Source: an uncultured beta proteobacterium
Lineage (GTDB): Bacteria > Pseudomonadota > Gammaproteobacteria > Burkholderiales > Burkholderiaceae_C
Assembly (NCBI GenBank): GCA_963706655.1
Contig: CAVPNN010000006.1
Span: 74,356-138,355 of the forward strand
DNA length: 64,000 nt
Direction of reading: 5' to 3'
A program made the translations under genes and the position numbers. The notes under the pieces are model-generated. The model had not been told where the DNA came from. It saw only the letters and a list, made by a program, of their open reading frames with translations, and made no database searches. Of the stretch, positions 7,514 to 62,173 are shown piece after piece. How positions within the stretch are numbered: position 1 is the stretch's first letter; the number at the start of each line of letters is the position of its first letter.

Positions 7514-9682
<2,169 letters not shown>

Positions 9683-45561: not shown

Positions 45562-46650
45562 TCACGACGGCAGGAAGTCCACCGGCCACGACACGACCAT
45601 CGTGTCGACATCCTTGTTGCCGAATTCGAAACTGCGCACGCGGGCGGTGAGCTTGCGTTCCAGTTCGGCGGCGGCCAGGTCGCTCGAGATCACGCGACAG
45701 TCGATCACTTCGCCGCTGGGCGCGATCCTGAGCTCGAGCACGACCTTGCCCTGCAGACCGGGTTCGTCGCGCAAGGCGCGGTTGTAGAGCGCGTAGATGG
45801 CGCCCTTGTGGCGCTCGAACACGAGGCGGATCTCCTCGATCGACCGTGAGGCCTTGCCACTGCCACTGCGCTTGAGCGCGCCACCGGCCTTGCCGACGCC
45901 GCTGCCGTCGCCCCCGGCTGCAGTGCCACCGCCCGCACCACCGCCCGGGCCCCCACCACCGCCTCCGCCGATCGAGCCTTCGACCAGGGTCGTGGCGCGG
46001 CCTGCGAGGCCGCCACCGCCGGTGTCGCGGCTGTAGGCGCCGGTGGCGATGCCGCCGCTGCCCCGGGTTGCGGTCGAGGTGATCATCGCGCGCGTCGGGA
46101 CCCCGGCCTGGGTGCCGGCGCCCACGCCGGGACCACTGCCCGCCCCGACGCCGGGGCCGGGCTTGATCTCGGCATTGAGCTGCACCGCGACAGGTGCGGC
46201 GCTGAGCTGGTGGATCTGGTCCTTCATCGCGAGCAGTCCGACGCCAGAGGCGATCCGGCGCGCCGACTCGAGGTTCTCTCCCGGCGCCTGGCCCTTGACC
46301 GGGTTGCGTGCGGCGGCCACCGAGGCGGGCTGCGGCTTGGGTCTGGCCACCGGGATCGGTGCTTCTTTCTGCGCCACGGCGTTCTGCGGCGGCGGCGCGG
46401 GTGGCTTGGCAGCCGGCTTGACCGGCAACGGCGCTGCAGGCGGCAGCAGCAGCTTGGCGATGCGAGTCGGAGGCGCCGGTGCCGGCGCGGGGTCGGGCTC
46501 ACGCACCGGCGCGAGCAGCAGCACCGCGCACAACACGACCGTCGTGCCCAGCACCCACTGCTGGATGCGGTGAAACCGCTGTTCGTCGGCCGCGCTGGCA
46601 GACCACGCGAGCACGCCGTGGCGGAAGGAGAGGGCAGAGGCGGTCGTCAC
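45562..46650 (-). CDS. TonB-like energy transducer with Pro-rich and Gly-rich spacers (AgmX/PglI-type C-terminal domain by pattern)
   Basis: GTG start 2 nt after exbD, single TM helix VLGTTVVLCAVLLLAPV, and Pro-rich PDPAPAPAPP...PPAAPLPVKPAAKPPAPPP. The Gly-rich stretch is GGGGGGPGGGAGGGTAAGGDGSG. The C-terminal domain is IYALYNRALRDEPGLQGKVVLELRIAPSGEVIDCRV. Confidence 0.75.
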   Translation of the reverse strand: MTTASALSFRHGVLAWSASAADEQRFHRIQQWVLGTTVVLCAVLLLAPVREPDPAPAPAPPTRIAKLLLPPAAPLPVKPAAKPPAPPPQNAVAQKEAPIPVARPKPQPASVAAARNPVKGQAPGENLESARRIASGVGLLAMKDQIHQLSAAPVAVQLNAEIKPGPGVGAGSGPGVGAGTQAGVPTRAMITSTATRGSGGIATGAYSRDTGGGGLAGRATTLVEGSIGGGGGGGPGGGAGGGTAAGGDGSGVGKAGGALKRSGSGKASRSIEEIRLVFERHKGAIYALYNRALRDEPGLQGKVVLELRIAPSGEVIDCRVISSDLAAAELERKLTARVRSFEFGNKDVDTMVVSWPVDFLPS

Positions 46651-46652
46651 GA

Positions 46653-47114
46653 TCAGACCTCGTTGCGCACCGCGAAGGCGACGTCGACGTACTCGGCCTG
46701 GGCGGCGGTCACCATCACCTTGCGCAGCAGCCGGTAGGGGATGTCCTTGTCGCCCATGATCGTCAGCGTCTTCGATGCAGAGGGCTGCCTGCGGGTCTGG
46801 CTCAACTCGGCTTGCAGTGACGCAATCAGATCACCCTCGGCGCCCATGACCTCGGCCACGCTCGCGATCACCCGGCCGTCGACCAGGATCTGGTCGGCAC
46901 TGATCGCGACGACAACGGTCGGCTTGGGCTCGGCCTCGACCACCGATGTCGGCAGCTTGACGCCTTTGTGGGCCGGCAGGCTCTCGATGCCATTGGCGCT
47001 GGAGAGCAGGAAGAAGAGCAGGATCGTGAAGATGTCGATCAGCGCGACCAGGTTCATGTCCAGGCCCTGCTTGTTGCGCTCGCCGCGTGCGGCGCGTTTC
47101 TGCAAAGGGGTCAT
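46653..47114 (-). CDS. exbD: biopolymer transport protein ExbD/TolR (second copy)
   Basis: MNLVALIDIFTILLFFLL TM helix and periplasmic domain ...TLTIMGDKDIPYRLLRKVMVTAAQAEY. ATGA overlap with the upstream exbD. Confidence 0.85.
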   Translation of the reverse strand: MTPLQKRAARGERNKQGLDMNLVALIDIFTILLFFLLSSANGIESLPAHKGVKLPTSVVEAEPKPTVVVAISADQILVDGRVIASVAEVMGAEGDLIASLQAELSQTRRQPSASKTLTIMGDKDIPYRLLRKVMVTAAQAEYVDVAFAVRNEV

Positions 47115-47605
47115 GGTGCGCTCGCACGTGCCGGTGCGTCGCCGACCGCGATCTCGGGGAACAGTTCGTGCACGTCGCGGCCCTGCAATTCGCGGTGTTC
47201 ACGCACCGCATCCATCACGTGCACGATCTGCTCGTAGGGCGTGTCGGTCTCGGCCAGCACGCTGGCCTGCTTCTCGTCGGGGAACCTGGCCTTGACCTGC
47301 TGCAGCAGGGTGCCGAGCGCGACCACATCGTGACCTTTGGCGGTGTCGGGGATGCGCTGGATCAGGCCGCCGACCCTGTCACCGACCTCGAGCGCGTTCG
47401 GTCGGATCACGATCTCGAGCTGCAGCTTCTCGGCCTTCAGGGTCTCAAGGCCGGGCGCAGCCGCGGCTGGCAACGACAACTCCAGCACCGACATGCGCGT
47501 GAACACGGCGGTCGACAGCAGGAAGGGCACGAGCACGACGATCAGGTTGATGAAGGCCGTGACCTCCAGCTCGGCCGGCTTCTTGTGCAGGCGGCGGACT
47601 CGCAT
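47111..47605 (-). CDS. exbD: biopolymer transport protein ExbD/TolR (first copy)
   Basis: AELEVTAFINLIVVLVPFLL TM helix and ...SVLAETDTPYEQIVHVMDAV. Starts 2 nt after the exbB stop. Confidence 0.85.
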   Translation of the reverse strand: MRVRRLHKKPAELEVTAFINLIVVLVPFLLSTAVFTRMSVLELSLPAAAAPGLETLKAEKLQLEIVIRPNALEVGDRVGGLIQRIPDTAKGHDVVALGTLLQQVKARFPDEKQASVLAETDTPYEQIVHVMDAVREHRELQGRDVHELFPEIAVGDAPARASAP

Positions 47606-47607
47606 GA

Positions 47608-48267
47608 TCAGCCGGCTCTCTGGTTCGCCGGCTCCGGCGCCAGGCGCTGGACCAGGTTCAGGAAGCTGATCTTGGCCGCCTCGAGACCATCGACGATCTC
47701 GGTCGTGCGCGCCTGCAGGAAGGCGTGGATGAGCAGGAAGGGGATCGCCACCATGAGCGCGAACGCGGTGTTGTTCATCGCGATCGAGATGCTCGACGCC
47801 AGCATCTCGGCCTTGCTCGCCGGATCGACCTGGGCCACTGCAGTGAAGCCCTTGATGAGACCGATGATGGTGCCGAGCAGGCCGACCAGCGTGATGACGT
47901 TGGCGAAGGTTGCGATGTAGTGGGTGCGCTTTTCCAGGCGCGGCACGATCTCCATCATGCCTTCCTCCATCGCGGCGTCGATGTCCTCACGCCGGCGTGC
48001 GCTTTGCATGCGGGTCAGACCGTTGTGCACGATCTTGCCGATCGCGGCGTGCGAGGCCTGGGCGACACCATGCACTTCGCTGAACTTGCCGCCCTGGAGC
48101 ATCGGCAGCATCTGGTCCCAGAGCTTGCGGTTCTCGCTGCGCGTGCGGCGCAGGAACAGATGGCGCTCGATGGCGATCGACAGCCCGACCGCCATGATCA
48201 GCATGCTGATGTAGATGAACATGCCTGAGTCCTGGACGAACTTGACGGCGAACTCGAATCCGTTCAT
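47608..48267 (-). CDS. exbB: MotA/TolQ/ExbB proton-channel protein
   Basis: 219 aa, three TM helices, conserved block IATFANVITLVGLLGTIIGLIKGF...SISIAMNNTAFALMVAIPFLLIH. Confidence 0.9.
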   Translation of the reverse strand: MNGFEFAVKFVQDSGMFIYISMLIMAVGLSIAIERHLFLRRTRSENRKLWDQMLPMLQGGKFSEVHGVAQASHAAIGKIVHNGLTRMQSARRREDIDAAMEEGMMEIVPRLEKRTHYIATFANVITLVGLLGTIIGLIKGFTAVAQVDPASKAEMLASSISIAMNNTAFALMVAIPFLLIHAFLQARTTEIVDGLEAAKISFLNLVQRLAPEPANQRAG

Positions 48268-48575
48268 TTCTGAATCTCCTTGGGGGCGGGGGGCGATGCG
48301 GTTGACGTGGGAATGGACTTGGCCAGTTGCGCGTTGAAGCTGAGCTGGCGGCGGAATTCGTCGCGGTCGAGCGGTGCGAGCACCTCGTCGATCACGCTGA
48401 CCGGGGGGCGCGACGACAGCTCACCGGGCAGCGGCTTCTTCCACGGCACGATGTAGAGCACCTTGGGCAACTCGCGGTTGCCGATGATCTGCGTGCGGTC
48501 GATGGCGGCGCGGTCCTGGGCCGATGCCGCGCTGCCGAGCGCGACCAGCAAGGCGCATCCGATGCGGGGGTTCAT
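48264..48575 (-). CDS. small secreted protein of unknown function
   Basis: 103 aa, MNPRIGCALLVALGSAASAQ signal. ATGA overlaps at both ends (48572-48575 and 48264-48267). Confidence 0.55.
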   Translation of the reverse strand: MNPRIGCALLVALGSAASAQDRAAIDRTQIIGNRELPKVLYIVPWKKPLPGELSSRPPVSVIDEVLAPLDRDEFRRQLSFNAQLAKSIPTSTASPPAPKEIQK

Positions 48576-51500
48576 GGGCGGCCCTCCTTGCGACTGACGG
48601 TGATCGGCGGGTCCCTGCGCGTCTTCAGGTCGGCGACCCACTTCGACACCGTCGCGTCGCCGCTCGGCAGCAGGGCCAGATAGCCCTGGTAGAGATCGAG
48701 TGCGCGCGCACGTTGGCCCAGGTAGAGGTCGTGCAGGATGGCCTGGTCGAGCAGGGCGTCGGCATGCATGGGGTTGAGCGCCAGCGCCTGGTCGTAGGCG
48801 TCGCGCGCGCCCTTGAACTGGCCCTGGCGACGGCGCGCGACGCCGAGCGCAGTCCAGCCGGCCGCGTCGCTGGCACCACGCTGCTCGAGCTCGGCCAGCG
48901 TCGCCGTGACCGCGCCGCGTTCGGCCTTGGCATAACGCGCGGGTTTGAGCGTGGCCAGGGCGGCAAAGCTGCGCTGGACCCAGTCGTCGTAAAGGCCGTC
49001 GGCAGCGCGCCGCGCGTTCGCCTCGTGCAGCTCGATGGCCTTTTCCTCGAACGGAAAGGCCTGCTCCTCGAGCATGACGTTGTACTGCTCGAGCGCGGCC
49101 CGGCTCAGCTTGCGCGGGCGCTCGGACTGCATCATGGCCTGACCGAAATGCTGGTACAGGGCAGCGCTGTGGAAAGCGGCGGCGGTGACGGCCTCGGTGA
49201 CGCCGTATTCGGACAGCGTGGCACAGGCTTGCAACGCTTCCTCGAGCCTGGCCTTCTTGAGTTTCAGGCTGCGCTGCAGCGGCTCGACCAGGCGCAACTG
49301 ACGATAAGACTCGAACACCGGTTCGGACAGCTGCAGCGTGGCCCGCGCGGCGAGTGTGCGGGTGCGCTCGCTGCGTTCGTCGGCGCCACTGCGGTCGGCT
49401 TGCTGGATCGCCTTCAACCACGACAGTTCGGTCTTGCGGTCGCCCGCCTGGCGGGCGAAGTCGGCGAGTTGCTGGCGCGCATCGATGGCAGGTGCCAGCG
49501 GCTGCGGGTGCGACGCGACATAACGCTCGAAGGCCCGTTGCGCGTCGGATCGCTGGCCGGCCTTGGCGTACAGCTCGGCGACCTGCCAATGTGCGTCGCG
49601 CGCCGCGGCGGCGTCGCCCAGGGCCGGCGCCATCCGCTCGAGCTCGGCGGCGGCGGGGCCCCACTGCTGCTGCTCCAGATGGGCCAGCGCGAGTTTGGCC
49701 GGGATCTCGGCAGCGAGCGCGTGGCCGGGGAAGCGCTGGCGGAAGTCCTGCAGCGCACGCGTGGCGCCGGGCCAGTCCTTCAGCGCGATCAGCGTGGCCG
49801 CCGCGTCGTACTGCGCGGGCGCCATCACGCTGGTGGCCGAGCCAAGTGCGCTGACCCGGTCGAAATGGGCGACCGCGTCGCGCAGCTGGCCGCCCGACCG
49901 GGCCGCTTCGCCCTGCTTGTAGATCGATGCCGCGAGACGTTCATCGACTTCCGCGCGGGCCTTGTCACTGGCGGGTGTCAGGGCGAGCACCTGCCTGTAA
50001 CCGGCCTCCGCCAGCAGGAAGTCGGCGCGCTCGAAGGCGCCGTGCGAGACGACGGTCCAGGCGACGCGGCGTTGCGCGTCGGGCGCTGGTGGTTTCAGCG
50101 CGAGCACCCGCTCGGCGACGTCGACCGCGGCCTTGCTGTCCTTGAGGGCAAACAGCGTCTCGGCAGCGTGGGTCAGCACCGGGCCGGTGCGCGGGTCGAC
50201 CGGGAAGGCGTCGGCGAAGCGCAGCGCACGTGCCACGCCGACGCGCTGCAGCCCCGCGGGGTCGGTTGCGGCCTGCTCCAGCTTGGTCTGCGCCAGCAAC
50301 ACGGCGTAGCCGGCGTCGGCGCTGCGCGCGTGCAGCGGGTAGTCGTAGGCGACTTGTTCGTAGGCCGTCGCGGCGTCGTCGTAGCGGGCGTTCTCGTACA
50401 GGAGTTCGGCGAGCAGGAAGCGGCTCTGGGCGGCTTCGGGTTCGTTCGGGAACGACGCCAGCCAGGCGCGATACCAGCGCACGGCTTCGTCCACATCTTC
50501 GCCGCTGCGGCTCTTCTGCGCCAGCGCATGGTGGTGGCGCGCCAGTTCGGCCAGGTGGGTCTTGACAAAGGGCTGGGCCGACTGCCAGACCTCGGGGTTG
50601 GCGCTCTGGAATCCGCTGTCCAGGCCGTAACGGGCCACGTAGTCCTTCTTCGACTGCAGCGCCAGCGCGGCAAAGCCGTTCTTCTCGTGGATCTCGATCA
50701 CGTGCGACAGGAAGACCGGCGCCTGGGCGTGCAGCGGGCGAACACGCGCGAACGCGGCGAGGCTGTCGGCAGCGTCCTTGATGCGTTCCTGCTTCAGGTA
50801 GAGCTCGGCCAGGTGGCTGTAGACCTGGGGCTCGAAGACCTGGCGCCGGGACGTCGTGACGTAGGCCGGGATCGACGCGGCGCCCTGCAGGTTCTGCAGA
50901 GCCAGGCTGGTGACGCGGAAGGTGTCTTCGAGCAGTTCGCGGTCGGCGCGTGTCAAGGCCTCGCGCGTGCCCGCGTCGTCGGGTGCGAGCTTGCCTTCGA
51001 GGACGCCGAAGAAGGAGTGCAGGGACTCGTCCAGCCGCCCTTGCTTGAACAGCGACCAGCCGTGCATGAAAAGGGCGCGCTCTCTGAACTGGCTCGCCGG
51101 TTCGGCCCGCAGCACTGCGGCGAAGGCACGCTCTGCGTCCGGATGGCGGCGCGCGGTGAAGAGCAGTTCACCACGCCGGAACTGGACTTCGTCGAGGGTG
51201 GGCGCGGCCGGGAATTCGGCGACCAGGCGGTCGAGTGTGCTGAGCGCCGATGGCGCGTCCGCGCTCAGCTCCTGGGCACGTGCCAGTTGGTAGAGCACGC
51301 GGTGGTTGCCCGGGTCCTTCGGGTAGGCGCGGAGGTAGTCGGTGTAGCGCGCGATGGCAGCGCGGTAGTCAGGTGCCGCGCCGGTCTGTGCGCTGCGGTC
51401 GTCGGTGACGGCCATCTCGAGGTCGCCCAGGCGGCGCGACGCCTCGGCACGCTGGATGGCGTTGGGCGCAGCGGCGAGGAAGGCACGGTAGGCCGCGATG

Positions 51501-51679
51501 GCCTGTTCGGGGCTGGCCTGCACGCCACCATCGGGTGCAACCGTGACCTTGCGGTCGGCCAAGGTGGCCAGCGTGGGTTCGTTGTCCGGTGAGCCTCGCC
51601 TGGGGCTCGCGCAGCCGGCCAACGCCGCGATGGCGACGGCACCGACCATCCAATGACCGGCGTCAACGCGGCGTGGCAT
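48572..51679 (-). CDS. large TPR-repeat lipoprotein (about 1030 aa)
   Basis: Lipobox AIAALAGC near the N-terminus. Helical repeats with A/L/Y/R periodicity throughout (e.g. AIAAYRAFLAAAPN, AIARYTDYLRAYPKDP, VLYQLARAQELS). The start is ATG 51679 or ATG 51649. Confidence 0.8.
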   Translation of the reverse strand: MPRRVDAGHWMVGAVAIAALAGCASPRRGSPDNEPTLATLADRKVTVAPDGGVQASPEQAIAAYRAFLAAAPNAIQRAEASRRLGDLEMAVTDDRSAQTGAAPDYRAAIARYTDYLRAYPKDPGNHRVLYQLARAQELSADAPSALSTLDRLVAEFPAAPTLDEVQFRRGELLFTARRHPDAERAFAAVLRAEPASQFRERALFMHGWSLFKQGRLDESLHSFFGVLEGKLAPDDAGTREALTRADRELLEDTFRVTSLALQNLQGAASIPAYVTTSRRQVFEPQVYSHLAELYLKQERIKDAADSLAAFARVRPLHAQAPVFLSHVIEIHEKNGFAALALQSKKDYVARYGLDSGFQSANPEVWQSAQPFVKTHLAELARHHHALAQKSRSGEDVDEAVRWYRAWLASFPNEPEAAQSRFLLAELLYENARYDDAATAYEQVAYDYPLHARSADAGYAVLLAQTKLEQAATDPAGLQRVGVARALRFADAFPVDPRTGPVLTHAAETLFALKDSKAAVDVAERVLALKPPAPDAQRRVAWTVVSHGAFERADFLLAEAGYRQVLALTPASDKARAEVDERLAASIYKQGEAARSGGQLRDAVAHFDRVSALGSATSVMAPAQYDAAATLIALKDWPGATRALQDFRQRFPGHALAAEIPAKLALAHLEQQQWGPAAAELERMAPALGDAAAARDAHWQVAELYAKAGQRSDAQRAFERYVASHPQPLAPAIDARQQLADFARQAGDRKTELSWLKAIQQADRSGADERSERTRTLAARATLQLSEPVFESYRQLRLVEPLQRSLKLKKARLEEALQACATLSEYGVTEAVTAAAFHSAALYQHFGQAMMQSERPRKLSRAALEQYNVMLEEQAFPFEEKAIELHEANARRAADGLYDDWVQRSFAALATLKPARYAKAERGAVTATLAELEQRGASDAAGWTALGVARRRQGQFKGARDAYDQALALNPMHADALLDQAILHDLYLGQRARALDLYQGYLALLPSGDATVSKWVADLKTRRDPPITVSRKEGRP

Positions 51680-53510
51680 CGGTTTTCACCCGGGCGACCG
51701 TGGCCCGGTCCTGCAACTGGGCGACCGCGAAGCGCGCTTGCGCGCCGTACTCCACCAGCCTCGACTTCTGCGTCAGCAGGGCGGTCACGGCCATCTCCTG
51801 CAAGGCCAGTTGCTGCTCGCCGCGCAACGCGGCAACACGCGGGATCTGCACCTGCAGTTGTTTGGCCAGGGCCGCGATACGCCCGGCCAGGCGGTCGAAG
51901 CGGGCCGGCTCGTCGCGTTGCGCCTGGGCCAGCGCCGCATCGCGCCGCTCGGCCTCGGCCAGCGATTCGTCGATGCTGCGCAGGGACTTCTTCGCCTCCC
52001 AGATCCGCGCCGGGTGCTGGCGCGCCAGTTGCCAGGTCAGGGCACCTGCTATCCGTTCGGCGCGCTGGCGCGCGGTGGCGCTGCGCTCGTCCGGTGGCAG
52101 GGATGCCAGCATTGCCTGCGCACGTGCCAGGCGCTCGATGAGCGCGCGTTCGGATGCGTCGGCGAGCGCGCGGCCATCGGCCTGGCGTTCGGCCGCGGCG
52201 AGTGCCTCGCTCAACTCGCCGCGGCGCTGTCGAAGTGCGCCCAGATGGACCTTGCGGGCCTCGGCTCGAACAACGGGCAGCCGCTCGGCGTAGCCGGTGC
52301 GGCGGTTGTCGAGCATGTCGCCGAAACTGCCGAGATCGTCCGCCCAGCGCTGCAGGTTGGCGAGCAGGAAGCGCAGATCGCGCTGGTCCTTGAGCGCTTC
52401 CTGGAACGCGTGCGACGCGAGCAGCGGCGCGAGTTGCGACGGGTGCGGGATGTCGGGTACGGTCTCGGCCTTCCAGAGCCATCCGAGGTCGGCGCCGGGG
52501 TTCCTGTCCAGCAAGGCATCGACGAGCTTGCCCACGCGCACCGCGACAATCGTCTGGTCGAGCGCATCGATCTCGCGGTCGTAGGCGGCGATGGCCTGTC
52601 GATAGCCCTCATGGGCCTGCCCGTAGGCCTTCAGTTCGGCATAGGCATAGGGCACCGCAAGGCGCGCTTCGAGCACTGCCGGGTCACTCGCGTCACGGGT
52701 GCTCAGTTCCTGCCACGGCACGAGTGCGAGCCCGGGCTGCTCGAGCTTGGCGGCGGCCCAGCCGAAACCGAGCAGGGCCTTGTTGGCATACGGCCCATGC
52801 AGGCGCACACGCTGCAGATGCTCACGTGCGAGCGCCGGTTGATCGTCTTGCAGTGCGCCAAAACCGAGCGCGAGGTTGGCCTTGTCGCGCAGGCTGCGTT
52901 GTTCTTCGTCGGCCGCCGGCATCTTGCCCAGGCCCGCCAGCCATTGCCCGCCGCGGGCCAGGTCGCCGGTGCGCACCAGGGCCACACCCAGGTTGAAGCG
53001 GGCATAGGGCGTGCCCTTGGTGTCGGCCGCCAGGGCGCCGAGCACGTTCGCCGCGCCCGCGTAGTCGGCCGCCGCGATGCGCAGCTGGGCATCGAGCAGC
53101 TGCCGCTCTTCCTGCAACCCGCCCGGCAAGGGCGCCGCGACCTTGGCCAGCGCGCTCGCGGCATCGGCGCCGAGGCCGCGCTGCCAGCGGATCTTGGCCA
53201 GGGTGTACCAGGCCCGGTCGCGCATCGCGGGTGTCGTGCCCTGCTCGGCCAGGCGCGTGAAGATGACTTCGGCATCGCGGTGCAAGCCGTAGGACAGCAG
53301 CAGGCCGCCGCGCAGGGCCTCGCCCTCGTCGGCATGCGGCGGCAGGCGGTCGAACTGCTGTGACGCCATCAACGTCGTCACGGCCTGGAAGTCCTTGCCC
53401 TGGTAGAAGTTGAACAGCACGTCGCCCCAATGCGGCGCACGCACCTCGCCGCCGACGGCCGGGCCGGCCACCAGGGTGGACAGGGCGATGATGGACAGGA
53501 CCCGTTTCAC
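51663..53510 (-). CDS. TPR-repeat periplasmic protein with C-terminal coiled coil (615 aa)
   Basis: GTG start in a GTGA overlap (53507-53510). Signal MKRVLSIIALSTLVAGPAVG, TPR-like N-half, Arg/Ala/Leu-rich coiled-coil C-half. Confidence 0.75.
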   Translation of the reverse strand: MKRVLSIIALSTLVAGPAVGGEVRAPHWGDVLFNFYQGKDFQAVTTLMASQQFDRLPPHADEGEALRGGLLLSYGLHRDAEVIFTRLAEQGTTPAMRDRAWYTLAKIRWQRGLGADAASALAKVAAPLPGGLQEERQLLDAQLRIAAADYAGAANVLGALAADTKGTPYARFNLGVALVRTGDLARGGQWLAGLGKMPAADEEQRSLRDKANLALGFGALQDDQPALAREHLQRVRLHGPYANKALLGFGWAAAKLEQPGLALVPWQELSTRDASDPAVLEARLAVPYAYAELKAYGQAHEGYRQAIAAYDREIDALDQTIVAVRVGKLVDALLDRNPGADLGWLWKAETVPDIPHPSQLAPLLASHAFQEALKDQRDLRFLLANLQRWADDLGSFGDMLDNRRTGYAERLPVVRAEARKVHLGALRQRRGELSEALAAAERQADGRALADASERALIERLARAQAMLASLPPDERSATARQRAERIAGALTWQLARQHPARIWEAKKSLRSIDESLAEAERRDAALAQAQRDEPARFDRLAGRIAALAKQLQVQIPRVAALRGEQQLALQEMAVTALLTQKSRLVEYGAQARFAVAQLQDRATVARVKTDATPR

Positions 53511-55010: not shown

Positions 55011-55126
55011 GGCGTCGGCCTGGTCGGGCGGGACATCGACTGCCGTCGCCGGTGCGCTTGCGAAGGCCCCACCCAGGACACCGGCGAGGCGGCCGGCGAA
55101 GCGCAGCAGCGCGGACAGTGCAGCGC

Positions 55127-55351
55127 CTAATTGCAGCCACAGCCACCTCCTTGAACGCCGGTGGCGCCGCGTGCCCCTTCACGCACCACATGCACATGCT
55201 CGCGGTGTTTTTCGAGCAGCGGTTGGCGCGCCAGCTGCATCAGCGGGTCGGCCAGGCGCTCGCGCTCATAGGGCTTGACCCAGGGCTGCACGGCGCAACC
55301 GCCGAGCTGGGCAACGGCGACGATGGCAAGCGTGATCGACAGCGTTCTCAT
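55127..55351 (-). CDS. DUF4266-family small lipoprotein
   Basis: 74 aa, lipobox VAQLGGC, body PYERERLADPLM, C-terminus GARGATGVQGGGCGCN*. ATGA overlap with tlpA. Confidence 0.75.
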   Translation of the reverse strand: MRTLSITLAIVAVAQLGGCAVQPWVKPYERERLADPLMQLARQPLLEKHREHVHVVREGARGATGVQGGGCGCN

Positions 55352-55833
55352 TCCTTCACCAGGGCCCGGACCTGTTGTTCGTAGAGCTTCTCGACGCCTT
55401 CTCGGTAGCCGCGGTGCACATGGCGCACACGCCCGTCGCGGTCGATGACGACGGTGGTCGGCATGGCATCGAGGTCGTACAGGCGGCTCACGCCCTTGCC
55501 CGCGTCGAGCAGGACCGGGAACCTCACGCCAAGCGCCTGGGCGGCGCGGGCCGCGTTCTTCGGGTCGTCGTCCACATTGACGCCGAGCAGCGTGAAGCCG
55601 GTGTCGCGGTACTTGTCGTGCAGGTGGTTCAGGTGCGGCATCTCCTGCTTGCACGGGCCGCACCAGCTGGCCCAGAAGTTGATCATCACGACCTGGCCCC
55701 GTTGTTCGCCCAGGCGCAGGTTCGGGCCGGCGAGCGACTTCAGCGTGAAGTCAGGTGCCGGCTTGTCGGCAAGGGCCGGACCGCACAGCACGAGGGCAGT
55801 GGCCAGGGAGAGGGTGCGCAGGATCGGGACCAT
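55348..55833 (-). CDS. TlpA/ResA-family periplasmic thiol:disulfide oxidoreductase
   Basis: Signal peptide, PAPDFTLKSL, active site FWASWCGPCKQEMP, thioredoxin fold. Confidence 0.88.
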   Translation of the reverse strand: MVPILRTLSLATALVLCGPALADKPAPDFTLKSLAGPNLRLGEQRGQVVMINFWASWCGPCKQEMPHLNHLHDKYRDTGFTLLGVNVDDDPKNAARAAQALGVRFPVLLDAGKGVSRLYDLDAMPTTVVIDRDGRVRHVHRGYREGVEKLYEQQVRALVKE

Positions 55834-55843
55834 GGGTCGTCCT

Positions 55844-56479
55844 TCAGAAGAAGAGGCTGAAGCCGGCGCTGACCTCGAGGTTCTGGGTGCTCTCGCGCTT
55901 GCCCAGCAAGTCGAGCGAGAAGATGTGGTCACGCACGTCGACGCGCAGTGCGCTGCGCTCGCCAAGCAGCAGCCGCATGCCGAACCCGAGGTTGAGGGTC
56001 TGGCGCGACTGCTCGTTGAAGTTCGTGCTGCCGACGCCGCCGAGCACGAAGAAGGACGTGGCCTTGGCGCGGTTGGCGCCGAAGAAGGCCTCGCCCGGCA
56101 GCAGGTTGTAGCCGGCCGACAGGTTGTAGTACTTGAGCGTCTCGCTGCCGGTGGCGAAGATGCCGCCGGGCAGGATCTGGCGGTAGTTGTCGTCGCTGAC
56201 CTTGCTGCTGGCGTAGGCGCCCTCGACGAAGAAGTCCTCGGTGATGTGGTAACCCAGGCGCACACCGACGACGGCGCTCGAGCCGAAGTTCTGCGTGCCG
56301 TAGGTGCCGGCGAAGAGGCCGACCTCGAAGTCGCGCGACGGGATGCGAGGCAACTTCAGATCGCGCCGGTCGACGGCCGGGACCACCGCCTGACCTTCAC
56401 CGGGTTTGCGGTCCTGGGCCAGCGACGGCACGGCGGTCAGGGTGGCGGCACTGGCCAGGGCAAGCAGCAGAGGTCGCAT
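55844..56479 (-). CDS. small outer-membrane beta-barrel protein
   Basis: Signal MRPLLLALASAATLTAVPSLAQ, alternating strands, terminal GFSLFF. Confidence 0.65.
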   Translation of the reverse strand: MRPLLLALASAATLTAVPSLAQDRKPGEGQAVVPAVDRRDLKLPRIPSRDFEVGLFAGTYGTQNFGSSAVVGVRLGYHITEDFFVEGAYASSKVSDDNYRQILPGGIFATGSETLKYYNLSAGYNLLPGEAFFGANRAKATSFFVLGGVGSTNFNEQSRQTLNLGFGMRLLLGERSALRVDVRDHIFSLDLLGKRESTQNLEVSAGFSLFF

Positions 56480-56487
56480 GGTGGCTT

Positions 56488-57240
56488 TCAGAAGAAGAAG
56501 GACAGGCCGGCCGTGAACGCGCGGTATTCGCCATAACGTTCATCGGCCAGAAAGGCGGTGTAGAGCGTGTAGTCGACGCGCACGACGAAGCGGTCGCTCA
56601 GGTAGTAGCGCAGCCCGATCGCGGCGTTGGCCAGGTTGGCATTGGTCGGCACGGCGTTGACCAGGCTCAGGTTGGGCAGGTTGTCGAACCGGCCGACGCC
56701 GATGCCGAAGTAGGGCGACCAGCGGCGGTCGGACCAGGGCTCGCTGGTCAGGTTGACTTGCCAGTAGTCGGTGCCCGAATACAGCCCCTGCACCTGGCCC
56801 AGGCTGCCCTCGATCGCCAAGGTGTCGGCCAGGCGGTAGCTGGCCCACAGCTTGAGCATCGGCTCCTTCTCGAATCGACCCAGCGACGCGCCGAGTTCGA
56901 GACGGCGGCGCAGGTAGTCGTCGACGGCGACGTCGAAGAAGCGCTTGCGCTCGCCACTCGCGGTGAGCGTGGAAGCGAGCTGGGTGCGATGCACCCAGCC
57001 GACCTGGCCGCTGGCGGTGCGCACGCGGTACCAGTCGGTGCGGCGCTGCTCGATCTCGATCCACTCGCTGCGCTCGGCGACATGGAACTTCGGATAGCCG
57101 CGCCCCGGTCCGGTGTGCAGGTCGACAAAGGGGTCGGTGATCTGGAGCCGTTCGACCGGGGGCTCGGCGGCGTGCAGTGGCGCAGCCAGGCCGAGCCACA
57201 GCGACAGTCCGAGCAAGGTCGTGATCAGTCGGTGTTGCAT
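56488..57240 (-). CDS. SH3b-like domain fused to an outer-membrane beta-barrel
   Basis: Signal peptide, SH3-like GYPKFHVAERSEWIEIEQRRTDWYRVRTASGQVGWVHRTQL, then barrel strands ending GLSFFF. Confidence 0.65.
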   Translation of the reverse strand: MQHRLITTLLGLSLWLGLAAPLHAAEPPVERLQITDPFVDLHTGPGRGYPKFHVAERSEWIEIEQRRTDWYRVRTASGQVGWVHRTQLASTLTASGERKRFFDVAVDDYLRRRLELGASLGRFEKEPMLKLWASYRLADTLAIEGSLGQVQGLYSGTDYWQVNLTSEPWSDRRWSPYFGIGVGRFDNLPNLSLVNAVPTNANLANAAIGLRYYLSDRFVVRVDYTLYTAFLADERYGEYRAFTAGLSFFF

Positions 57241-57827
57241 GTGCCTGTCGTCGGATCTGCCGGTGTGAAGAGGTTGTGGCCGGCGCTGCTGAATTCGTCC
57301 TGGCCGCGTGGCATCGGGTGTTCGATCCAGTAGCGAAGCACCTTGACCAGGGGGTCGTCGATGCTGTGGAAGACCAGGCCACCGCCATGCAGCACGTTGA
57401 GCAGCAGCGGCTTGGCGATCAGGCGGCTTTGCAGCGTGGCGCCGAGCACGACTTCGCCTTGAGCCGAGTAGAAGTTGCGGTACATATCGGTGCCACGCAC
57501 CACCTCGGGCGTGTTGGCGGCCAGGCTCAGGTCGACCGGCGCCGCATTCGGCACGATGCGCAATGCGCCGCCGGTTCCGCTGACGTTGTCGTGGCAGCCC
57601 GAGGCAGCGCAGGTATTGATTGCGGTGGCGCCGCTCTGCGTCACCGGCAGGGGTGCCAGCAGGATCGGCTGCACGCAGCGCTGGTAGTAGATGAACGAGA
57701 GCTTCTGACCGTTGCCGGTCGCGGCGCCGTTCACGACCGTGGGCGGATTGCCGAGCGGGTTGTCACCACCGCCGCAGGCGGCGAGCGTGGCCAGGCCCAT
57801 GACCATCAAGGCGAATCGATTGTTCAT
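57225..57827 (-). CDS. lipoprotein with one PSCyt1-like (planctomycete cytochrome c-like) C-x4-CH motif
   Basis: MNNRFALMVMGLATLAACGGG lipobox; YQRCVQPILLAPLP...NTCAASGCHDNVSGTGGALRIV. ATGA overlap with the upstream gene (57824-57827). Confidence 0.6.
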   Translation of the reverse strand: MNNRFALMVMGLATLAACGGGDNPLGNPPTVVNGAATGNGQKLSFIYYQRCVQPILLAPLPVTQSGATAINTCAASGCHDNVSGTGGALRIVPNAAPVDLSLAANTPEVVRGTDMYRNFYSAQGEVVLGATLQSRLIAKPLLLNVLHGGGLVFHSIDDPLVKVLRYWIEHPMPRGQDEFSSAGHNLFTPADPTTGTCNTD

Positions 57828-60814
57828 GGCGTCGGGCATCCGCGCGCGATCCAGTTCGCGATGGTCGTGTAGCCCGCGCTGCCGGTGGGCAGCACGGCCG
57901 CGCCCTGGCCCACCGCGCCCGCCGGATGCGGGATGCGCGAGGGCCGGCTCAGCAAGGTGTTGTTCTGCGGGTTGCAGGTGTCCGTGACCATGGTGAGCGT
58001 GACGTTGAAGTCGCCCCCGGGGTCACCGGTGAGCACGAGCCGGTTGCCTCCCGAACCGAGGCCCGTTTCGCTGCCGACCGGCTGGTGACAGCTGCGCGCG
58101 CAGGTGCTGCGCAGGATCGGGTGCACCTCGGCCGCGAACGTGGCCTCGTTCAGCGTGGTCACGCTGCGGACCTTGCTGGCGGCATCGAAGGGGTCGTTGA
58201 AATACTGGCCACCAAGGTCGATCCATTCGGCCACGAGGCGCTTTTCGGCCTTGTTGAGCAGCAAGGCGTGGTCGGGCGCGATCGCAGGCGGGTTCGGGTA
58301 GGCGCTGCGCGCCGCGCTGCCGGCGAGCAGGGCCTGGCCAGACAGGATCTCGATCAGGCGACTCTTGCGGGCCTGACCGGCGCTGTTGCTGGCGCTGGAA
58401 CTCGTCTGCACCAAGGGCGCCTGGCGCTGCAGCATCGGCACGCCATTGCGGACCACCGTCAGCGGCTGGCCGGTGGCCGGATCGATCGACGGGTCGCCGA
58501 TCAGCAATTCTTCGTACGAAACCAGGCGCCCGCCGCCGGCGATGGTGCCGCGCAGGTCGAGCCTGGCGGTCGCGAGGTGGCAGTTGGTGCAGGTCAGGCT
58601 GCCGCTGGCACCGCGGATGCGCGACCAGATCGGCTGGATGTGCTCGGGGTAGTTGATGACGCCATCGACCGGCGCGACGGTCTGCAGGTCGTCGGCCGGA
58701 TCGGGGTTGCCGGCATAGCGCAGCGAGATCGCGGCACGCGGCCGGGCCGCCGGGCGGGCCGGGTCGGCCCAGACATCGGCAAAGACGGGGTCGGGTTGCA
58801 GCAGCAGCTGGCGGGCATCCAGCCGTGTCCGCAGCGACGCCATGGTCTCGCCCGACTGGTGCTGGGACGCCAGCGCCGCACGCAGCGCGCTCGGCATGGT
58901 GTTGACCACGGTGCCGGAATTGAGCGCGCCACCACGGCGCGGGCTGTGGCAGCCGTCGCAGGTGCGGCGCTCGCCCGGGCGCACCTGGATCCAGTTGGTG
59001 TGGGTCTGGAAGGCACGACCCTGGGCGTCGATGATCTGCAGCGCGAGCGGAACGTCGGCCGGGACCTGGAGCTTGAACGATCCGTCGGGTTCGACCGGCG
59101 CATAGCCGAGGATCTGCTGCTGCTCGAACTCGGTCTCGCCGATGGCGCTGCGCAGGCCCATCGTGCTCGACGGTGGCGCAATCGCACGCAGGGCCCGCAC
59201 AAAGCGCACCGGGTTGCAGCCGTAGGCGGCGTCGGCCGGGTCCTTCATGCGCACCAGGTCGGCGACCATCGGTCGCGTCTCGCTCGGCTCGTCGGGCGGC
59301 GCGGTGGTGGCAATGCCGGTGCTGCAGCCCGCTGGCAGGTCGGCCGCGACGATCATCGGCTCACCCATGCGGCGCAGACCATCGGTGTCGAAGATGCTGC
59401 GCACCTCGATCAGGGCCAGGTCCTGCGCGGCCAGCTGCGGGTCGACATTGGTCGGGTCCGAGGCGGCGGGTTCGGCGCGCGCCTGCAGCGGCACCGGGTC
59501 GGTGTACATGAAGCCCGGCGGCGGTGCGGCCACGATGAGCCAGGTCTGGTCCTTGGGGTCGAACATGTAGATCGCGTAGGACGCGGGCACGTCGTCCTGC
59601 AGCGTGTCGGCAGCCGCTTCGGCGTCGGAGCGGTCGCTGCTTTGCAGGCGCGTGGTCTCGTCGGCGCTGAGGGTGGCGCAGGCGACCACGACGCCTTCCC
59701 GGCGCACCTCGCACGGGCGGTAGGCGACCAGCACGCGGTCGGTGCCGTCCCACAGCGGGTAGGGCGAGCTTGCACGGCCGTTCAGCGACAGGCCGCGCCC
59801 CAGCAACAGCGGCTCGGCCGTGGCTTCCTTCTGTCCGCCCTGGGCCGGCACGGTCCGATTGGCCGGCGTGTTGTGTTCGGAGTAGTTCGTGGCGTCGACG
59901 AACATCAGCGCGCCGCCTTCCTGCGAGCCCGACAGCGGCATCAGCGACGTTGCGAGAAAGCCCTTGTAGGCCCCGGCCGGATCCATCTCGCGTGGATGCA
60001 GAAAGCTGTTGCCGGGGCTCTGCGCGCCGTAGAAGACGAACAGATCGGTGCCGTCGGGCTTGGTGCGAAATACCGCGAATCGGTTCTTGTCTGCCACATG
60101 CTCCCAGCGTGCGAACAGGATGTCGCCGTTCGCCTGCACGACCGGGTTGCGGTCGTGGCTCTGGTTGAAGGTGATCTGCTCGATCCGGCCGCCGTCGGTG
60201 CGGGCGGTGTGCAGGTTCAGCACCCGCTCGCGTTCGTACTCGTCGAGCGCGTAGTAGCTGCGGCCCAGCGCCTGCTTGAGGTGCGACTTGGCCTGCCGGT
60301 TGGAGGCGAACACGAAGCCGCGGCCGGCCGGCAGGTAGGCCGGGTCGACGTCGTCGTCGGTGGTGGACGCCGTGATGCGACGCAGCTTTCCGTCCGTCAG
60401 GGCGCCCGCGCCGATGTCGTATTCCCAGAGGTTCCAGCGCCCGGTGCAGGCCGGCTTGCCGTCGATGGTGGAGCTGTTGGTCGTGGGGCAGCGCAGCGCG
60501 AAGACGATCTTCTTGCCGTCGTAGGAAACCTCGGGATCGGAGGCGTCACCGTTGCCTTGGGTGATGGTTGCGGTGAGGTTGTGCTCGGGTGCGCTGGGCG
60601 ATGACTTCTCGCGCAGCATCAGATCACCGCCGGGGGCGCTGGGCGTGCCGTTGGTGGGGGCGAGCTGGAGTGTGTTGACGCGCTTGACGTAGACCAGCGG
60701 CACATCGCCGTTGACGGTCACGGTGCCTTCGCCCGACGCTGAGCCGCCCTGGCAGCCGACCAGCAGCAGCGACATCGCGCCGACTGCGAACGACGCGATC
60801 GCACCGGGATTCAT
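57824..60814 (-). CDS. large lipoprotein (996 aa): TolB/PD40-like beta-propeller N-half, C-half with CxxCH and PSCyt1-like motifs (HzsA-related type)
   Basis: ATG 60814 (MNPGAIASFAVGAMSLLLVGCQGG). Propeller-like blades (EVSYDGKKIVFAL, GRGFVFASNR, NGDILFARWEH). CDGCH, CTNCH, CARSCH; HIQPIW and VHPILRSTC segments. The 228-codon upstream extension of ORF 57824-61498 overlaps apbE and is rejected. Confidence 0.7.
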   Translation of the reverse strand: MNPGAIASFAVGAMSLLLVGCQGGSASGEGTVTVNGDVPLVYVKRVNTLQLAPTNGTPSAPGGDLMLREKSSPSAPEHNLTATITQGNGDASDPEVSYDGKKIVFALRCPTTNSSTIDGKPACTGRWNLWEYDIGAGALTDGKLRRITASTTDDDVDPAYLPAGRGFVFASNRQAKSHLKQALGRSYYALDEYERERVLNLHTARTDGGRIEQITFNQSHDRNPVVQANGDILFARWEHVADKNRFAVFRTKPDGTDLFVFYGAQSPGNSFLHPREMDPAGAYKGFLATSLMPLSGSQEGGALMFVDATNYSEHNTPANRTVPAQGGQKEATAEPLLLGRGLSLNGRASSPYPLWDGTDRVLVAYRPCEVRREGVVVACATLSADETTRLQSSDRSDAEAAADTLQDDVPASYAIYMFDPKDQTWLIVAAPPPGFMYTDPVPLQARAEPAASDPTNVDPQLAAQDLALIEVRSIFDTDGLRRMGEPMIVAADLPAGCSTGIATTAPPDEPSETRPMVADLVRMKDPADAAYGCNPVRFVRALRAIAPPSSTMGLRSAIGETEFEQQQILGYAPVEPDGSFKLQVPADVPLALQIIDAQGRAFQTHTNWIQVRPGERRTCDGCHSPRRGGALNSGTVVNTMPSALRAALASQHQSGETMASLRTRLDARQLLLQPDPVFADVWADPARPAARPRAAISLRYAGNPDPADDLQTVAPVDGVINYPEHIQPIWSRIRGASGSLTCTNCHLATARLDLRGTIAGGGRLVSYEELLIGDPSIDPATGQPLTVVRNGVPMLQRQAPLVQTSSSASNSAGQARKSRLIEILSGQALLAGSAARSAYPNPPAIAPDHALLLNKAEKRLVAEWIDLGGQYFNDPFDAASKVRSVTTLNEATFAAEVHPILRSTCARSCHQPVGSETGLGSGGNRLVLTGDPGGDFNVTLTMVTDTCNPQNNTLLSRPSRIPHPAGAVGQGAAVLPTGSAGYTTIANWIARGCPTP

Positions 60815-61824
60815 GCGGGCTCCACGAATTCGTGGCGTGCGAGGCCGTTGGAGAAATGCAGGGCACCAGTTGCGTCGACCACGACGGCGTCCGCGTCCGG
60901 TACCGATTCCACCAGGGCCAGTCCACGTTCGACACCCTGCACGAACACGCTCTTGGACAGGGCCTCGCAGGTGAGTCCGTCGCTTGCGAGCACGGTGACG
61001 CTGTGCACATGGTCGGGCGATCGACCGGTGCGTGGGTCGATCAGGTGGTGGAAGCGCCGGCCGCCCTTTTCGAAGAAGCGCTCGTAGTCGCCCGAGGTCG
61101 ACAGGGCGACGTTCTCGAGCGGCAGCACCGCCACCACCTCGCCCGGGCGGCGTGGATGGCGGATCGCGATGGTCCAGGGCCGGCCCCGCCGATCGCCCAA
61201 CACGCGGCTGTCGCCGCCTGCGGCCACCATGGCGTGCGTTATGCCATGCCGGCGCAGCAACTCGATCGAGCAGTCGACGGCATGGCCCTTGGCGAATCCG
61301 CCGAGATCGATTCGAACACCCTCGCGGGCGAAGGCGACGGTGCAGCGCTCGGCGTCGAGCAGCAGATGCTGCCAGCCGACGTTGGCGCGTGCCAGCGCGA
61401 GCGTCTTCTCGTCCGGATGCAGCCCGCGCCGGTAGTCGTACAACTGACCTACGCCGGCGTAGGTGATGTCGAACGCACCTGCGGACCGCTCGGACCATGA
61501 CCGCGCGCGCTGCAGCAGCATGAGCGTTTCGGCGCTGATCGGGACCGGGCCGGCATGCGCCTCTCTATTGATATGCGAGAGCTCGGAGTCCGCCTTGTGC
61601 GGGCTGTACGTTCGATCGATGCGGTGCATCTCCTGCATCACGTCGTCGATCGCGGCCTCGGCCCGGCGCCGGCTCTCGGACCAGAGTTCGACCCGGATCG
61701 AGGTTCCCATGATGGCGTCGTCACGGCGCTGCCAACCGCCGAGCGGATTGGGCCGCACGAGCGCGCAGGGCCTGGCCGCGGCCATGCGCCGCGCCGCTTG
61801 CCACAACGGCAAAGACAGCTGCAT
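60811..61824 (-). CDS. apbE: FAD:protein FMN transferase (ApbE family)
   Basis: MGTSIRVEL..., FDITYAGVG, IDLGGFAKGHAVD, AMVAAGGDSRV, LSTSGDYERFF...HHLIDPRTG. ATG 61824 is preceded by AAGGA. Confidence 0.88.
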   Translation of the reverse strand: MQLSLPLWQAARRMAAARPCALVRPNPLGGWQRRDDAIMGTSIRVELWSESRRRAEAAIDDVMQEMHRIDRTYSPHKADSELSHINREAHAGPVPISAETLMLLQRARSWSERSAGAFDITYAGVGQLYDYRRGLHPDEKTLALARANVGWQHLLLDAERCTVAFAREGVRIDLGGFAKGHAVDCSIELLRRHGITHAMVAAGGDSRVLGDRRGRPWTIAIRHPRRPGEVVAVLPLENVALSTSGDYERFFEKGGRRFHHLIDPRTGRSPDHVHSVTVLASDGLTCEALSKSVFVQGVERGLALVESVPDADAVVVDATGALHFSNGLARHEFVEPA

Positions 61825-62173
61825 CTGAAGTCCTTCTGGAAGAGGGCACGAGTTCGTGGCGGACCTTAGGGGCTGCGGTCGGCGCGAGCGGTGACCGCTG
61901 GTGGCCATGTGTGGTCAGATGAATCAGTTGCGTCAAACGTGTCCGGTTGAGACGGCAGGGTCGCAGCGTCGGGCCGGCAGTCGGTTCGTGAGAAAAGCCA
62001 CGAAGCGCGCGGCAAATGGCATCGATTGACCTGAGGCAAGGGGGCACGCGCAGTGCATCCGGCGGCTTCGCCTTGTTGCGCTTGCTACGTCTGGCCGCGC
62101 CGAGCGAGTTCCTTGCGTGGCCAGCGACAATGGAAGCGAACCGTGGCTGCCCGAGCCCGAACTTCCACCGCCG

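Follow-up and report, generated by a model that had tools for sequence, protein, structure and literature searches.

The locus analysed here raises the question of what machine would be encoded by a single block of genes in which proteins for flavin, haem and thiol chemistry stand beside a proton-driven envelope motor. The block consists of 16 genes on the minus strand (45562-61824) of a 64,000-nucleotide (nt) stretch of DNA, hereafter the window, from contig CAVPNN010000006.1 of an uncultured beta proteobacterium of the Burkholderiales. Our preferred reading, to which we give a probability of about 60%, is that the block is one operon for a trans-envelope machine of the Tol/Agl-Glt type, whose core is welded to an outer-membrane (OM) redox module. 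Gene content, operon structure, predicted folds and a linkage conserved across genomes carry this reading.

Gene content and operon structure

Open reading frames (ORFs) were listed and translated, and gene families were assigned with Pfam and NCBIfam profile searches. The 16 genes, named g01 to g16 in their order of reading, and the features at their upstream border are as follows.

60811..61824, minus: g01, ApbE-family FAD:protein FMN transferase, 337 amino acids (aa) (PF02424, 267 bits)
57824..60814, minus: g02, OM-type lipoprotein, 996 aa, lipobox LLVGC (PF18582 HZS_alpha middle domain, 73 bits)
57225..57827, minus: g03, lipoprotein with C-x4-CH, 200 aa, lipobox LAAC
56488..57240, minus: g04, secreted SH3 domain plus small OM beta-barrel, 250 aa (SH3_3 and OMP_b-brl)
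55844..56479, minus: g05, small OM beta-barrel, 211 aa (TIGR04565 'OMP_myx_plus', 136 bits, cutoff 60)
55348..55833, minus: g06, TlpA/ResA-type periplasmic thiol:disulfide oxidoreductase with WCGPC (Redoxin, 110 bits)
55127..55351, minus: g07, DUF4266 lipoprotein (PF14086, 81 bits)
54018..55140, minus: g08, DUF3570 protein, predicted 16-strand OM beta-barrel (PF12094, 102 bits)
53507..54052, minus: g09, secreted protein, 181 aa (no Pfam match; AlphaFold2 pLDDT 79)
51663..53510, minus: g10, GltC-like periplasmic helical/tetratricopeptide repeat (TPR) protein, 615 aa (weak TPR_16 and TPR_19)
48572..51679, minus: g11, GltD-like TPR lipoprotein with a GltE-like TPR tail, 1035 aa (multiple TPR families)
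48264..48575, minus: g12, secreted protein, 103 aa, the 'additional gene' of non-myxobacterial cores (no family match)
47608..48267, minus: g13, AglR-like TolQ/ExbB-type proton channel (MotA_ExbB, 91 bits; best NCBIfam model TolQ)
47111..47605, minus: g14, first TolR/ExbD-like subunit (ExbD, 50 bits)
46653..47114, minus: g15, second TolR/ExbD-like subunit (ExbD, 58 bits)
45562..46650, minus: g16, GltG-like TonB-type transducer (NF033768 AgmX/PglI C-terminal domain, 59.6 bits, cutoff 40)
61825..62116, no strand: divergent apbE(-)/yaaA(+) intergenic region, presumed operon promoter region
62117-62968, plus: yaaA (Pfam H2O2_YaaD)

All 16 ORFs are present in the order described by an earlier, sequence-only reading of this DNA, whose junction coordinates proved exact on recheck. 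Eleven of the 15 junctions are overlaps, including six 4-nt ATGA overlaps (60811-14, 57824-27, 55348-51, 48572-75, 48264-67 and 47111-14), one GTGA overlap (53507-10) and longer overlaps at g03/g04 (16 nt), g08/g09 (35 nt) and g10/g11 (17 nt); the other four are gaps of 8, 10, 2 and 2 nt. No minus-strand terminator-like site was found within the block by a consensus scan, in agreement with the earlier statement that it holds no hairpin followed by a T-tract. The G+C content is about 68% throughout. Since the block is bordered by the divergent yaaA upstream and by a convergent ORF downstream (44614-45534), it forms a discrete unit. Its promoter is presumed to lie in the apbE/yaaA intergenic region; a promoter scan of this region found no sigma-70 consensus upstream of apbE. 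The same region, upstream of the operon start, contains a terminator-like hairpin with a T-tract (62013-61997, minus strand), which could be an attenuator, a leader element or chance.

Profile hidden Markov models supported the ApbE, DUF3570, DUF4266, TlpA, MotA_ExbB, ExbD and TPR names that had been given from the letters alone, and failed to support TonB_C on g16, which stayed below its cutoff. As also stated earlier, the operon contains no TonB-dependent receptor.

The motor half resembles an Agl/Glt core complex

Luciano et al. (2011; PMC3169522) described a core complex made up of gltC, gltD, gltE, gltG, aglR, aglQ, aglS and an additional gene. These genes cluster, 'possibly as an operon', in a single betaproteobacterium and also in Geobacter, Fibrobacter and several gammaproteobacteria. 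The core, whose hosts here are non-gliding, was put forward as the precursor from which the gliding and sporulation machines of Myxococcus arose. The betaproteobacterium is Methylibium petroleiphilum PM1, and the role of the core was left unknown in that paper. Its Table S3 gives the PM1 genes as follows, as homologues of GltC, GltD, GltE, AglR, AglQ, AglS and GltG.

Mpe_A1224, 634 aa: GltC-like, MXAN_2541 homologue
Mpe_A1225, 941 aa: GltD
Mpe_A1226, 243 aa: GltE
Mpe_A1227: unlisted slot
Mpe_A1228, 217 aa: AglR
Mpe_A1229, 170 aa
Mpe_A1230, 163 aa
Mpe_A1231, 371 aa: GltG

Genes g10-g16 share gene order and near-identical lengths with Mpe_A1224-A1231, and the loci closest to the window come from the set of Burkholderiales genera that includes Methylibium. 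Both the described core and the window have a TolQ-like protein, two TolR-like proteins, an AgmX/PglI TonB-like protein, TPR proteins and a small gene between gltE and aglR. The position and length of g10 match Mpe_A1224, g11 has its counterparts in Mpe_A1225 and Mpe_A1226, g12 occupies the unlisted Mpe_A1227 slot, and g16 corresponds to Mpe_A1231. The window differs from PM1 in that GltD and a short GltE-like part are fused. As judged from their sequences, g09-g16 are a predicted non-myxobacterial Agl/Glt core complex and not a TonB uptake system. This assignment replaces the ExbBD-TonB motor of the sequence-only reading: the AgmX/PglI domain of g16 passes its cutoff, whereas TonB_C (21.4 bits vs 24.6) and TIGR01352 (23.2 vs 27.1) fail. 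The grouping of the core with Myxococcus xanthus proteins leans on the trees of Luciano et al. for Methylibium PM1.

The best NCBIfam models of g13-g15 are TolQ and TolR, and every equivalog model stays below its cutoff. Alignment with Escherichia coli ExbD and TolR placed a transmembrane Asp in g15 of all 47 loci, whereas the corresponding column of g14 (ExbD Asp25, TolR Asp23) holds Asn in 26/47 and Asp in 21/47. These residues suggest that part of the family may have a heteromeric stator with one proton-binding subunit. The g16 protein consists of a transmembrane helix, a Pro-rich and Gly-rich linker and the AgmX/PglI C-terminal domain. It scores 41 bits against the GltG equivalog model NF033760 (cutoff 650) and only weakly with the GltJ model, and is best described as a putative GltG-like protein, not an equivalog.

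The TPR nature assigned earlier to g10 is weakly supported by Pfam. In addition to TPR families, g11 matches YbgF and GltE models, the GltE model NF033758 weakly and at residues 927-1004. This tail, the C-terminal ~110 aa (window 48572-48910), is a separate downstream ORF of ~240 aa in 118 related loci, as in Mpe_A1226. At E<1e-30 the relatives of g11 form 1130 clusters (50% identity) and are typically ~940 aa long; the closest locus to the window, in an uncultured Rubrivivax metagenome-assembled genome (MAG), has a g11 of 82% identity. Some relatives reach ~1500 aa and look like GltC-GltD fusions.

The first gene of this half, g09, had been described as a coiled-coil protein. AlphaFold2 instead predicts a signal peptide, one long helix of 30 residues and an eight-strand beta-sandwich, and comparison with the Protein Data Bank (PDB) gave no significant fold relative for it, only generic beta-sandwich matches (E > 1e-3). 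The identity of g09 is 59-66% in most gammaproteobacterial loci, compared with ~40% for g10 and g11, and only the AglR-like g13 matches it in degree of conservation. The family has at least 8000 homologues and no Pfam entry. Some relatives (P0338, P0366 and P0371) are labelled 'AraC family transcriptional regulator' in NCBI records, a label that is almost certainly wrong for a family of secreted helix and beta-sandwich proteins.

Conservation of the linkage across genomes

A phmmer search with g11 against 1.84 billion representatives was carried out, and the alignment of its matches then served for a scan of one genome for each species. A g11 relative was encoded at 593 loci or more, of which the best 80 were taken with 10-kb flanks and searched by tblastn with the 16 window proteins. 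The counts below are restricted to loci with enough flank.

DUF3570 (g08): Burkholderiales loci 31/31; gammaproteobacterial loci 3/35
DUF4266 (g07): Burkholderiales 31/31; gammaproteobacterial 2/35
TlpA (g06): Burkholderiales 31/31; gammaproteobacterial 31/35
g02: Burkholderiales 26/26; gammaproteobacterial 18/29 (2 on the same strand)
g03: Burkholderiales 27/28; gammaproteobacterial 0/30
g04: Burkholderiales 28/29; gammaproteobacterial 2/30
g05: Burkholderiales 30/31; gammaproteobacterial 2/32
g09: Burkholderiales 33/33; gammaproteobacterial 38/39
ApbE (g01): Burkholderiales 18/26 (at the flank edge); gammaproteobacterial 7/29
g12 position: Burkholderiales 35/35; gammaproteobacterial 36/37

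In the Burkholderiales loci all genes lie on one strand and in one order. Aquabacterium sp. A7-Y (L002) and Rhizobacter sp. Root1238 (L040), both cultured, have all 16 genes in order; the full gene set is also present in a Methylibium MAG (L021). Two gammaproteobacterial loci of Acidiferrobacteraceae (L035 and L041) keep the window order without g03. A second scan, of metagenomes and centred on a distant GltD-like protein, recovered the full arrangement again in three contigs (L083, L102 and L155) of 37%, 51% and 54% G+C, respectively.

The synteny of the core is kept in 160 loci, and in most other cores the position immediately upstream of g09 is taken by TlpA and/or ApbE. A trio replaces g01-g05 in many loci of gammaproteobacterial or marine origin: a protein of ~410 aa with a single CxxCH, a lipoprotein of ~840 aa with Laminin_G_3 and two CxxCH, and a protein of ~540 aa that has a Tat-type signal but no Pfam match. 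TlpA or ApbE follows, then g09 and the core (L042, L047-L053, L059, L064, L067, L068, L073 and L077; L082-L096, L101, L111, L112, L120 and L131). The trio is divergently oriented in L090 and L158. In Steroidobacteraceae-type and marine loci, the place of g01-g05 is taken by F15 (two CxxCH) and F18 (one CxxCH) lipoproteins and the Tat-signal protein. Other metagenome variants run ApbE-g09-core, ApbE-TlpA-g09-core, trio-ApbE-g09-core and trio-TlpA-g09-core.

We read g09 with the core as the stable unit, which nearly always has a thiol reductase and/or ApbE beside it. The distal module can be exchanged, yet haem-motif lipoproteins recur in it, and the lineage of the window has its most elaborate version. 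Because the window order recurs in dozens of independent genomes, it is not an accidental adjacency. The earlier view of the block as one unit is borne out by the 31/31 Burkholderiales loci in which both halves occur in the same order, so that the association is not confined to this genome. The halves also occur apart: DUF3570 accompanies 3/35 and TlpA 31/35 of the gammaproteobacterial cores, which shows that they are modular and not obligatorily fused.

The redox, haem and barrel genes

The largest protein of the distal module, g02, carries the haem-c motifs CDGCH, CTNCH and CARSCH, and its N-terminus shows a hint of a TolB-like propeller. It aligns with the alpha subunit of hydrazine synthase (HZS; PDB 5c2v_A, E 4.7e-12) over the middle domain and the C-terminal 'EWIDLGGQ', sharing the CxxCH haem site of the former and motifs of the C-terminal haem domain. 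The HZS-alpha haem ligand Tyr591 is unmatched in the alignment, as in non-anammox HZS-alpha homologues, where it is not conserved (PMC12758564), and the NF052339 score is 58.8 bits (cutoff 800). Unlike the HZS subunit, g02 is a lipoprotein, and no gene for a beta- or gamma-like partner was found in the operon. Since the alignment is partial and Tyr591 is unmatched, g02 is predicted to be a haem protein and not a hydrazine synthase.

For g03, Pfam and NCBIfam gave no family match. Its homologues keep Cx4CH (0.91 per member). An SGAT sequence eight residues before Cx4CH had made g03 a candidate ApbE substrate, which we rejected, as SGAT occurs at only 0.09 per member. The TIGR04565 match of g05 is strong and that of g04 weak; g06 also matches the ResA, TlpA and Thioredoxin_8 models, and g07 ends in GGGCGCN, which contains a CGC (CxC) motif. 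Lipoboxes are found in g02, g03, g07 and g11.

The AlphaFold2 model of g08, built with 51 sequences, has a mean pLDDT of 81, 16 strands and an aromatic terminal residue. In a Foldseek search against the PDB it retrieved OM barrels only, with PelB, OmpG, PgaA and AlgE at the top and TM-scores of ~0.5. Given this prediction, OM barrels are a reasonable distal partner of the motor. The sequence-only reading had named DUF3570 and/or the small barrels for this part; its suggestion is plausible for the window; most gammaproteobacterial cores are without DUF3570.

Relation to known systems

In Myxococcus, the barrels GltA, GltB and GltH bind periplasmic GltC, which is followed by GltD, GltE and GltF, the TonB-like GltG and the AglR5QS stator, and the OM lipoproteins GltK and CglB sit on the barrels (PMC11761067; PMC4488436). 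The window repeats the layers of the Agl-Glt and Agl-Nfs machines: a stator driven by proton-motive force (PMF), a TonB-like transducer, a TPR scaffold, small OM barrels and OM lipoproteins. Like GltA/GltB (PMC4488436), g04 and g05 are two small predicted barrels encoded side by side, and both match TIGR04565, whereas gltA, gltB and gltH were reported to be limited to Myxococcales and Bdellovibrionales (PMC3169522). Apart from the weak GltJ score of g16, no gene of the operon showed profile resemblance to GltI, GltJ or GltK in Pfam or NCBIfam. The operon also differs from Myxococcus in that no GltF, GltI, GltJ, GltK or CglB was found in it and that its GltG-like protein is without an FHA domain. 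No gliding is known for its group, and nothing in Glt or Nfs corresponds to the haem, flavin and thiol proteins.

The redox half resembles the ApbE/DUF3570/thioredoxin-like/DUF4266 clusters of Meheust et al. (2021; PMC8238504), the eLife study correctly cited by the sequence-only reading. These clusters include 227 DUF3570-containing examples with DsbD and 316 without, and were linked to iron transporters; the DUF3570 protein of Chlorobium luteolum is flavinylated at two [S/T]GA[S/T] motifs. All four families occur adjacent in the window, with CxC in DUF4266, and fit the 316 clusters without DsbD. The motor operon setting is not in PMC8238504, where ExbB has 0 mentions and TonB is mentioned for PepSY clusters only.

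With Tol-Pal and TonB-ExbBD, the operon shares a proton-driven stator of the 5:2 type and an elongated transducer spanning the periplasm, and the TPR repeats of g11 resemble YbgF/CpoB of the Tol-Pal system. It differs from both in having no Pal, TolB or TonB-dependent receptor and in its two distinct TolR-like subunits.

Full-text searches found no literature linking DUF3570, DUF4266, ApbE or TlpA with the Glt/Agl core; one preprint describes DUF4266/DUF3570/TlpA neighbourhoods in another context. In the sections of PMC3169522 consulted, the core is treated as stand-alone, with no mention of g09, TlpA, ApbE, DUF3570, the barrels or the haem lipoproteins. Each half is thus already known, the Agl/Glt core from PMC3169522 and the ApbE/DUF3570 cluster from PMC8238504. 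What appears to be new is the conserved pairing of the halves, the near-constant partnership of g09 and TlpA/ApbE with the core, the recurrent haem-lipoprotein modules beside it and the prediction of DUF3570 as a barrel. The earlier impression that the combined architecture is undescribed thus stands for the link between the halves; the motor half alone had been described.

The proposed machine and its weak points

In the machine that we propose, the AglR-like g13 and the two different TolR-like subunits g14 and g15 would form a proton-driven stator in the inner membrane, and the GltG-like g16 would act as the transducer. The GltC-like g10 and the lipid-anchored g11, with its GltD and GltE-like parts, would build a periplasmic helical/TPR scaffold, to which g09 and g12 may belong as small conserved secreted subunits of the core. 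The distal module would comprise three OM barrels (the 16-strand DUF3570 and the g04/g05 pair) and the two OM-type lipoproteins with haem-c motifs, g02 and g03, while TlpA, the DUF4266 CxC lipoprotein and ApbE could serve as maturation or electron-supply enzymes. How force is passed on, what the redox role is and which substrate is handled are inferred, with Myxococcus as the model: the flow of protons through the stator would act via g16 and the TPR scaffold on the OM barrels, where the force may assemble, gate or reposition a barrel-associated haem/flavin lipoprotein complex. The prosthetic groups of this complex would be haem and possibly flavin, and TlpA might keep the CxxCH or CxC cysteines reduced.

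Several points weigh against this reading, some against the whole and others against its flavin branch. The GltG and GltE equivalog models fall far below their cutoffs, and the link to the M. xanthus Glt proteins runs through the PM1 genes listed by Luciano et al. No DsbD/CcdA donor for TlpA was found in the operon or in the ~20 flanking ORFs scanned. Moreover, since the accessory module varies by lineage, the redox theme could reflect the maturation of cargo rather than electron transfer.

The flavin branch is challenged by both enzyme and substrate. ApbE is expected to act outside the cytoplasm, and the missing signal peptide is unexpected: the N-terminus of the window protein and of 15 close homologues lacks a hydrophobic signal-peptide core. 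Burkholderiales ApbE proteins share instead a conserved N-terminal extension of ~30 aa, 'MQLSLPLW...' or 'MMFGASKPT...' (window 61735-61824), whereas clear signal peptides are present in the ApbE homologues that accompany Glt-like cores in metagenome and gammaproteobacterial loci. The enzyme is also five genes away from DUF3570, which distinguishes the window from the clusters of Meheust et al. A regular-expression search found no [S/T]GA[S/T] motif in g08, where SNAS and TTAS stand instead: residues 79-93 (window ~54860-54900) read D-A-I-S-N-A-S-I-D-V-V-T-T-A-S-P, and the model places the SNAS...TTAS segment in a loop of low confidence that joins strands 3 and 4. In the 33 homologues compared, the second position of each motif is taken by N, S, C, T or Q, with no Gly in any of them, and the pattern of the clade is D..S[N/S/C]AS....T[T/Q]ASP. 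As the acceptor Ser and the Ala are kept and the Gly is lost, flavinylation of the DUF3570 proteins of this clade is possible on sequence grounds, and unproven. The flavinylation module announced by the sequence-only reading therefore holds as a cluster of four families, but lacks the expected motif and an exported ApbE.

The 5' end of g08 adds a further difficulty. The segment 55011-55126 encodes a signal peptide, as had been proposed, but the DUF3570 frame upstream of ATG 55010 contains no ATG, GTG or TTG. Homologues start with M/VAAIER; in the window, GTG 55140 reads VAAIRR in the adjacent frame and is preceded at 6 nt by AGGAGG. Further on, the signal peptide is encoded in the DUF3570 frame, so that a shift of 1 nt near 55122 is implied; it may stem from the assembly or be a genuine lesion. 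Owing to the homologous M/VAAIER starts and the AGGAGG, we judged a CTG start at 55136 or 55142 less likely than GTG 55140 with a frameshift. The public annotation (P0001, 330 aa) uses ATG 55010, which leaves the protein without a signal peptide.

The core proteins were also considered as ApbE substrates in loci with ApbE and without DUF3570, and this was rejected: their periplasmic core proteins contain no [S/T]GA[S/T]. An SGAS in AglR-like proteins ('LT[MIV]SGASNR') occurs in 8/17 such loci (L044, L060, L100, L105, L107, L126, L137 and L151) and in 6/80 loci without ApbE. It was discarded as a flavinylation target, as it lies in a predicted cytoplasmic loop after the first transmembrane segment and tracks one lineage; it probably reflects the common ancestry of its loci.

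Alternative explanations

The weak TonB_C match of g16, taken with MotA_ExbB and ExbD, allows the block to be seen as a TonB-ExbB-ExbD transducer that powers an uptake route, for instance for iron or a redox-active compound, in which DUF3570 or the small barrels take the place of a TonB-dependent receptor and the flavin and haem proteins reduce the imported substrate within the periplasm. That DUF3570 is predicted to be a barrel and that its clusters have been linked with iron transporters (PMC8238504) would suit such a role. We consider it unlikely, since TonB_C and TIGR01352 stay below their cutoffs while the AgmX/PglI domain is above its own, and two ExbD paralogues with three conserved periplasmic scaffold proteins are typical of Agl/Glt. 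In addition, the operon offers neither a plug-domain receptor nor a transporter for the inner-membrane step, and DUF3570 is absent from most cores. A machine for polymers or polysaccharides, like Nfs or the Pel, Pga and alginate export systems, in which a motor-driven TPR scaffold serves a 16-strand porin and the redox proteins are accessory, is slightly less likely still. The export porins PelB, PgaA and AlgE are the best structural matches of the DUF3570 model, the logic of TPR protein plus porin is similar, and the Glt paralogue Nfs moves spore-coat polysaccharide (PMC3858216). However, the TM-scores are only ~0.5 and any barrel of 16-18 strands matches, the operon and scanned flanks contain no glycosyltransferase, polymerase or Wza-type gene, and what the lineages share are CxxCH lipoproteins, TlpA and ApbE, not sugar enzymes.

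The least probable of the alternatives is that a flavin/thiol redox cluster of the DsbD type and a Glt-like core are functionally independent systems that share no more than a transcript in this lineage. DUF3570/ApbE clusters without motors do exist (PMC8238504), and 32/35 gammaproteobacterial cores are without DUF3570. Such a coincidence is hard to reconcile with an identical order that 31/31 Burkholderiales loci share with unrelated ones of 37-54% GC, with the overlap of the g08 and g09 stop and start codons, and with the persistence of TlpA or ApbE beside g09 when the rest of the module is exchanged. We therefore retain the reading of one operon for an Agl/Glt-type machine joined to an OM redox module.

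Other genes in the window

Elsewhere in the window, an ABC transporter for type I secretion that carries a C39 peptidase domain (7268-9985, plus) is encoded upstream of a 2313-aa RTX repeat protein (13277-20218, plus) with 24 HemolysinCabind stretches. Two further genes are unrelated to the operon: a 991-aa paralogue of DnaE-type polymerase III alpha (27742-30717, plus), possibly an error-prone DnaE2, and a GGDEF-EAL protein (33301-34872, minus).

Implications

The non-myxobacterial core is widespread: its GltD-like proteins form 1130 clusters or more at 50% identity, and species-representative genomes contain over 590 matches. The core has been without an assigned function since 2011. The linkage described here is the first functional lead: a core persistently attached to TlpA and/or ApbE and to exchangeable CxxCH lipoproteins and barrels provides a functional hypothesis that can be tested. 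Two conserved components that had been overlooked also emerge, g09 and, as an almost invariable neighbour of the core, TlpA. For the study of flavinylation, a large clade of DUF3570 becomes a predicted 16-strand OM barrel within a motor operon, and its Gly-less motifs and signal-peptide-less ApbE raise doubt over whether it is flavinylated. Genetics is made feasible by the cultured relatives Aquabacterium sp. A7-Y and Rhizobacter sp. Root1238, and Methylibium petroleiphilum PM1 has the core listed previously.

A broader and more doubtful reading is that the ancestral task of Agl/Glt was to energise an OM redox module by PMF, with gliding and spore-coat assembly as later re-uses. If this is true, PMF would be spent on assembling, gating or exposing the haem/flavin lipoproteins associated with the barrels, and DUF3570 would be a porin that carries flavin, so that electrons or redox substrates could cross the OM.

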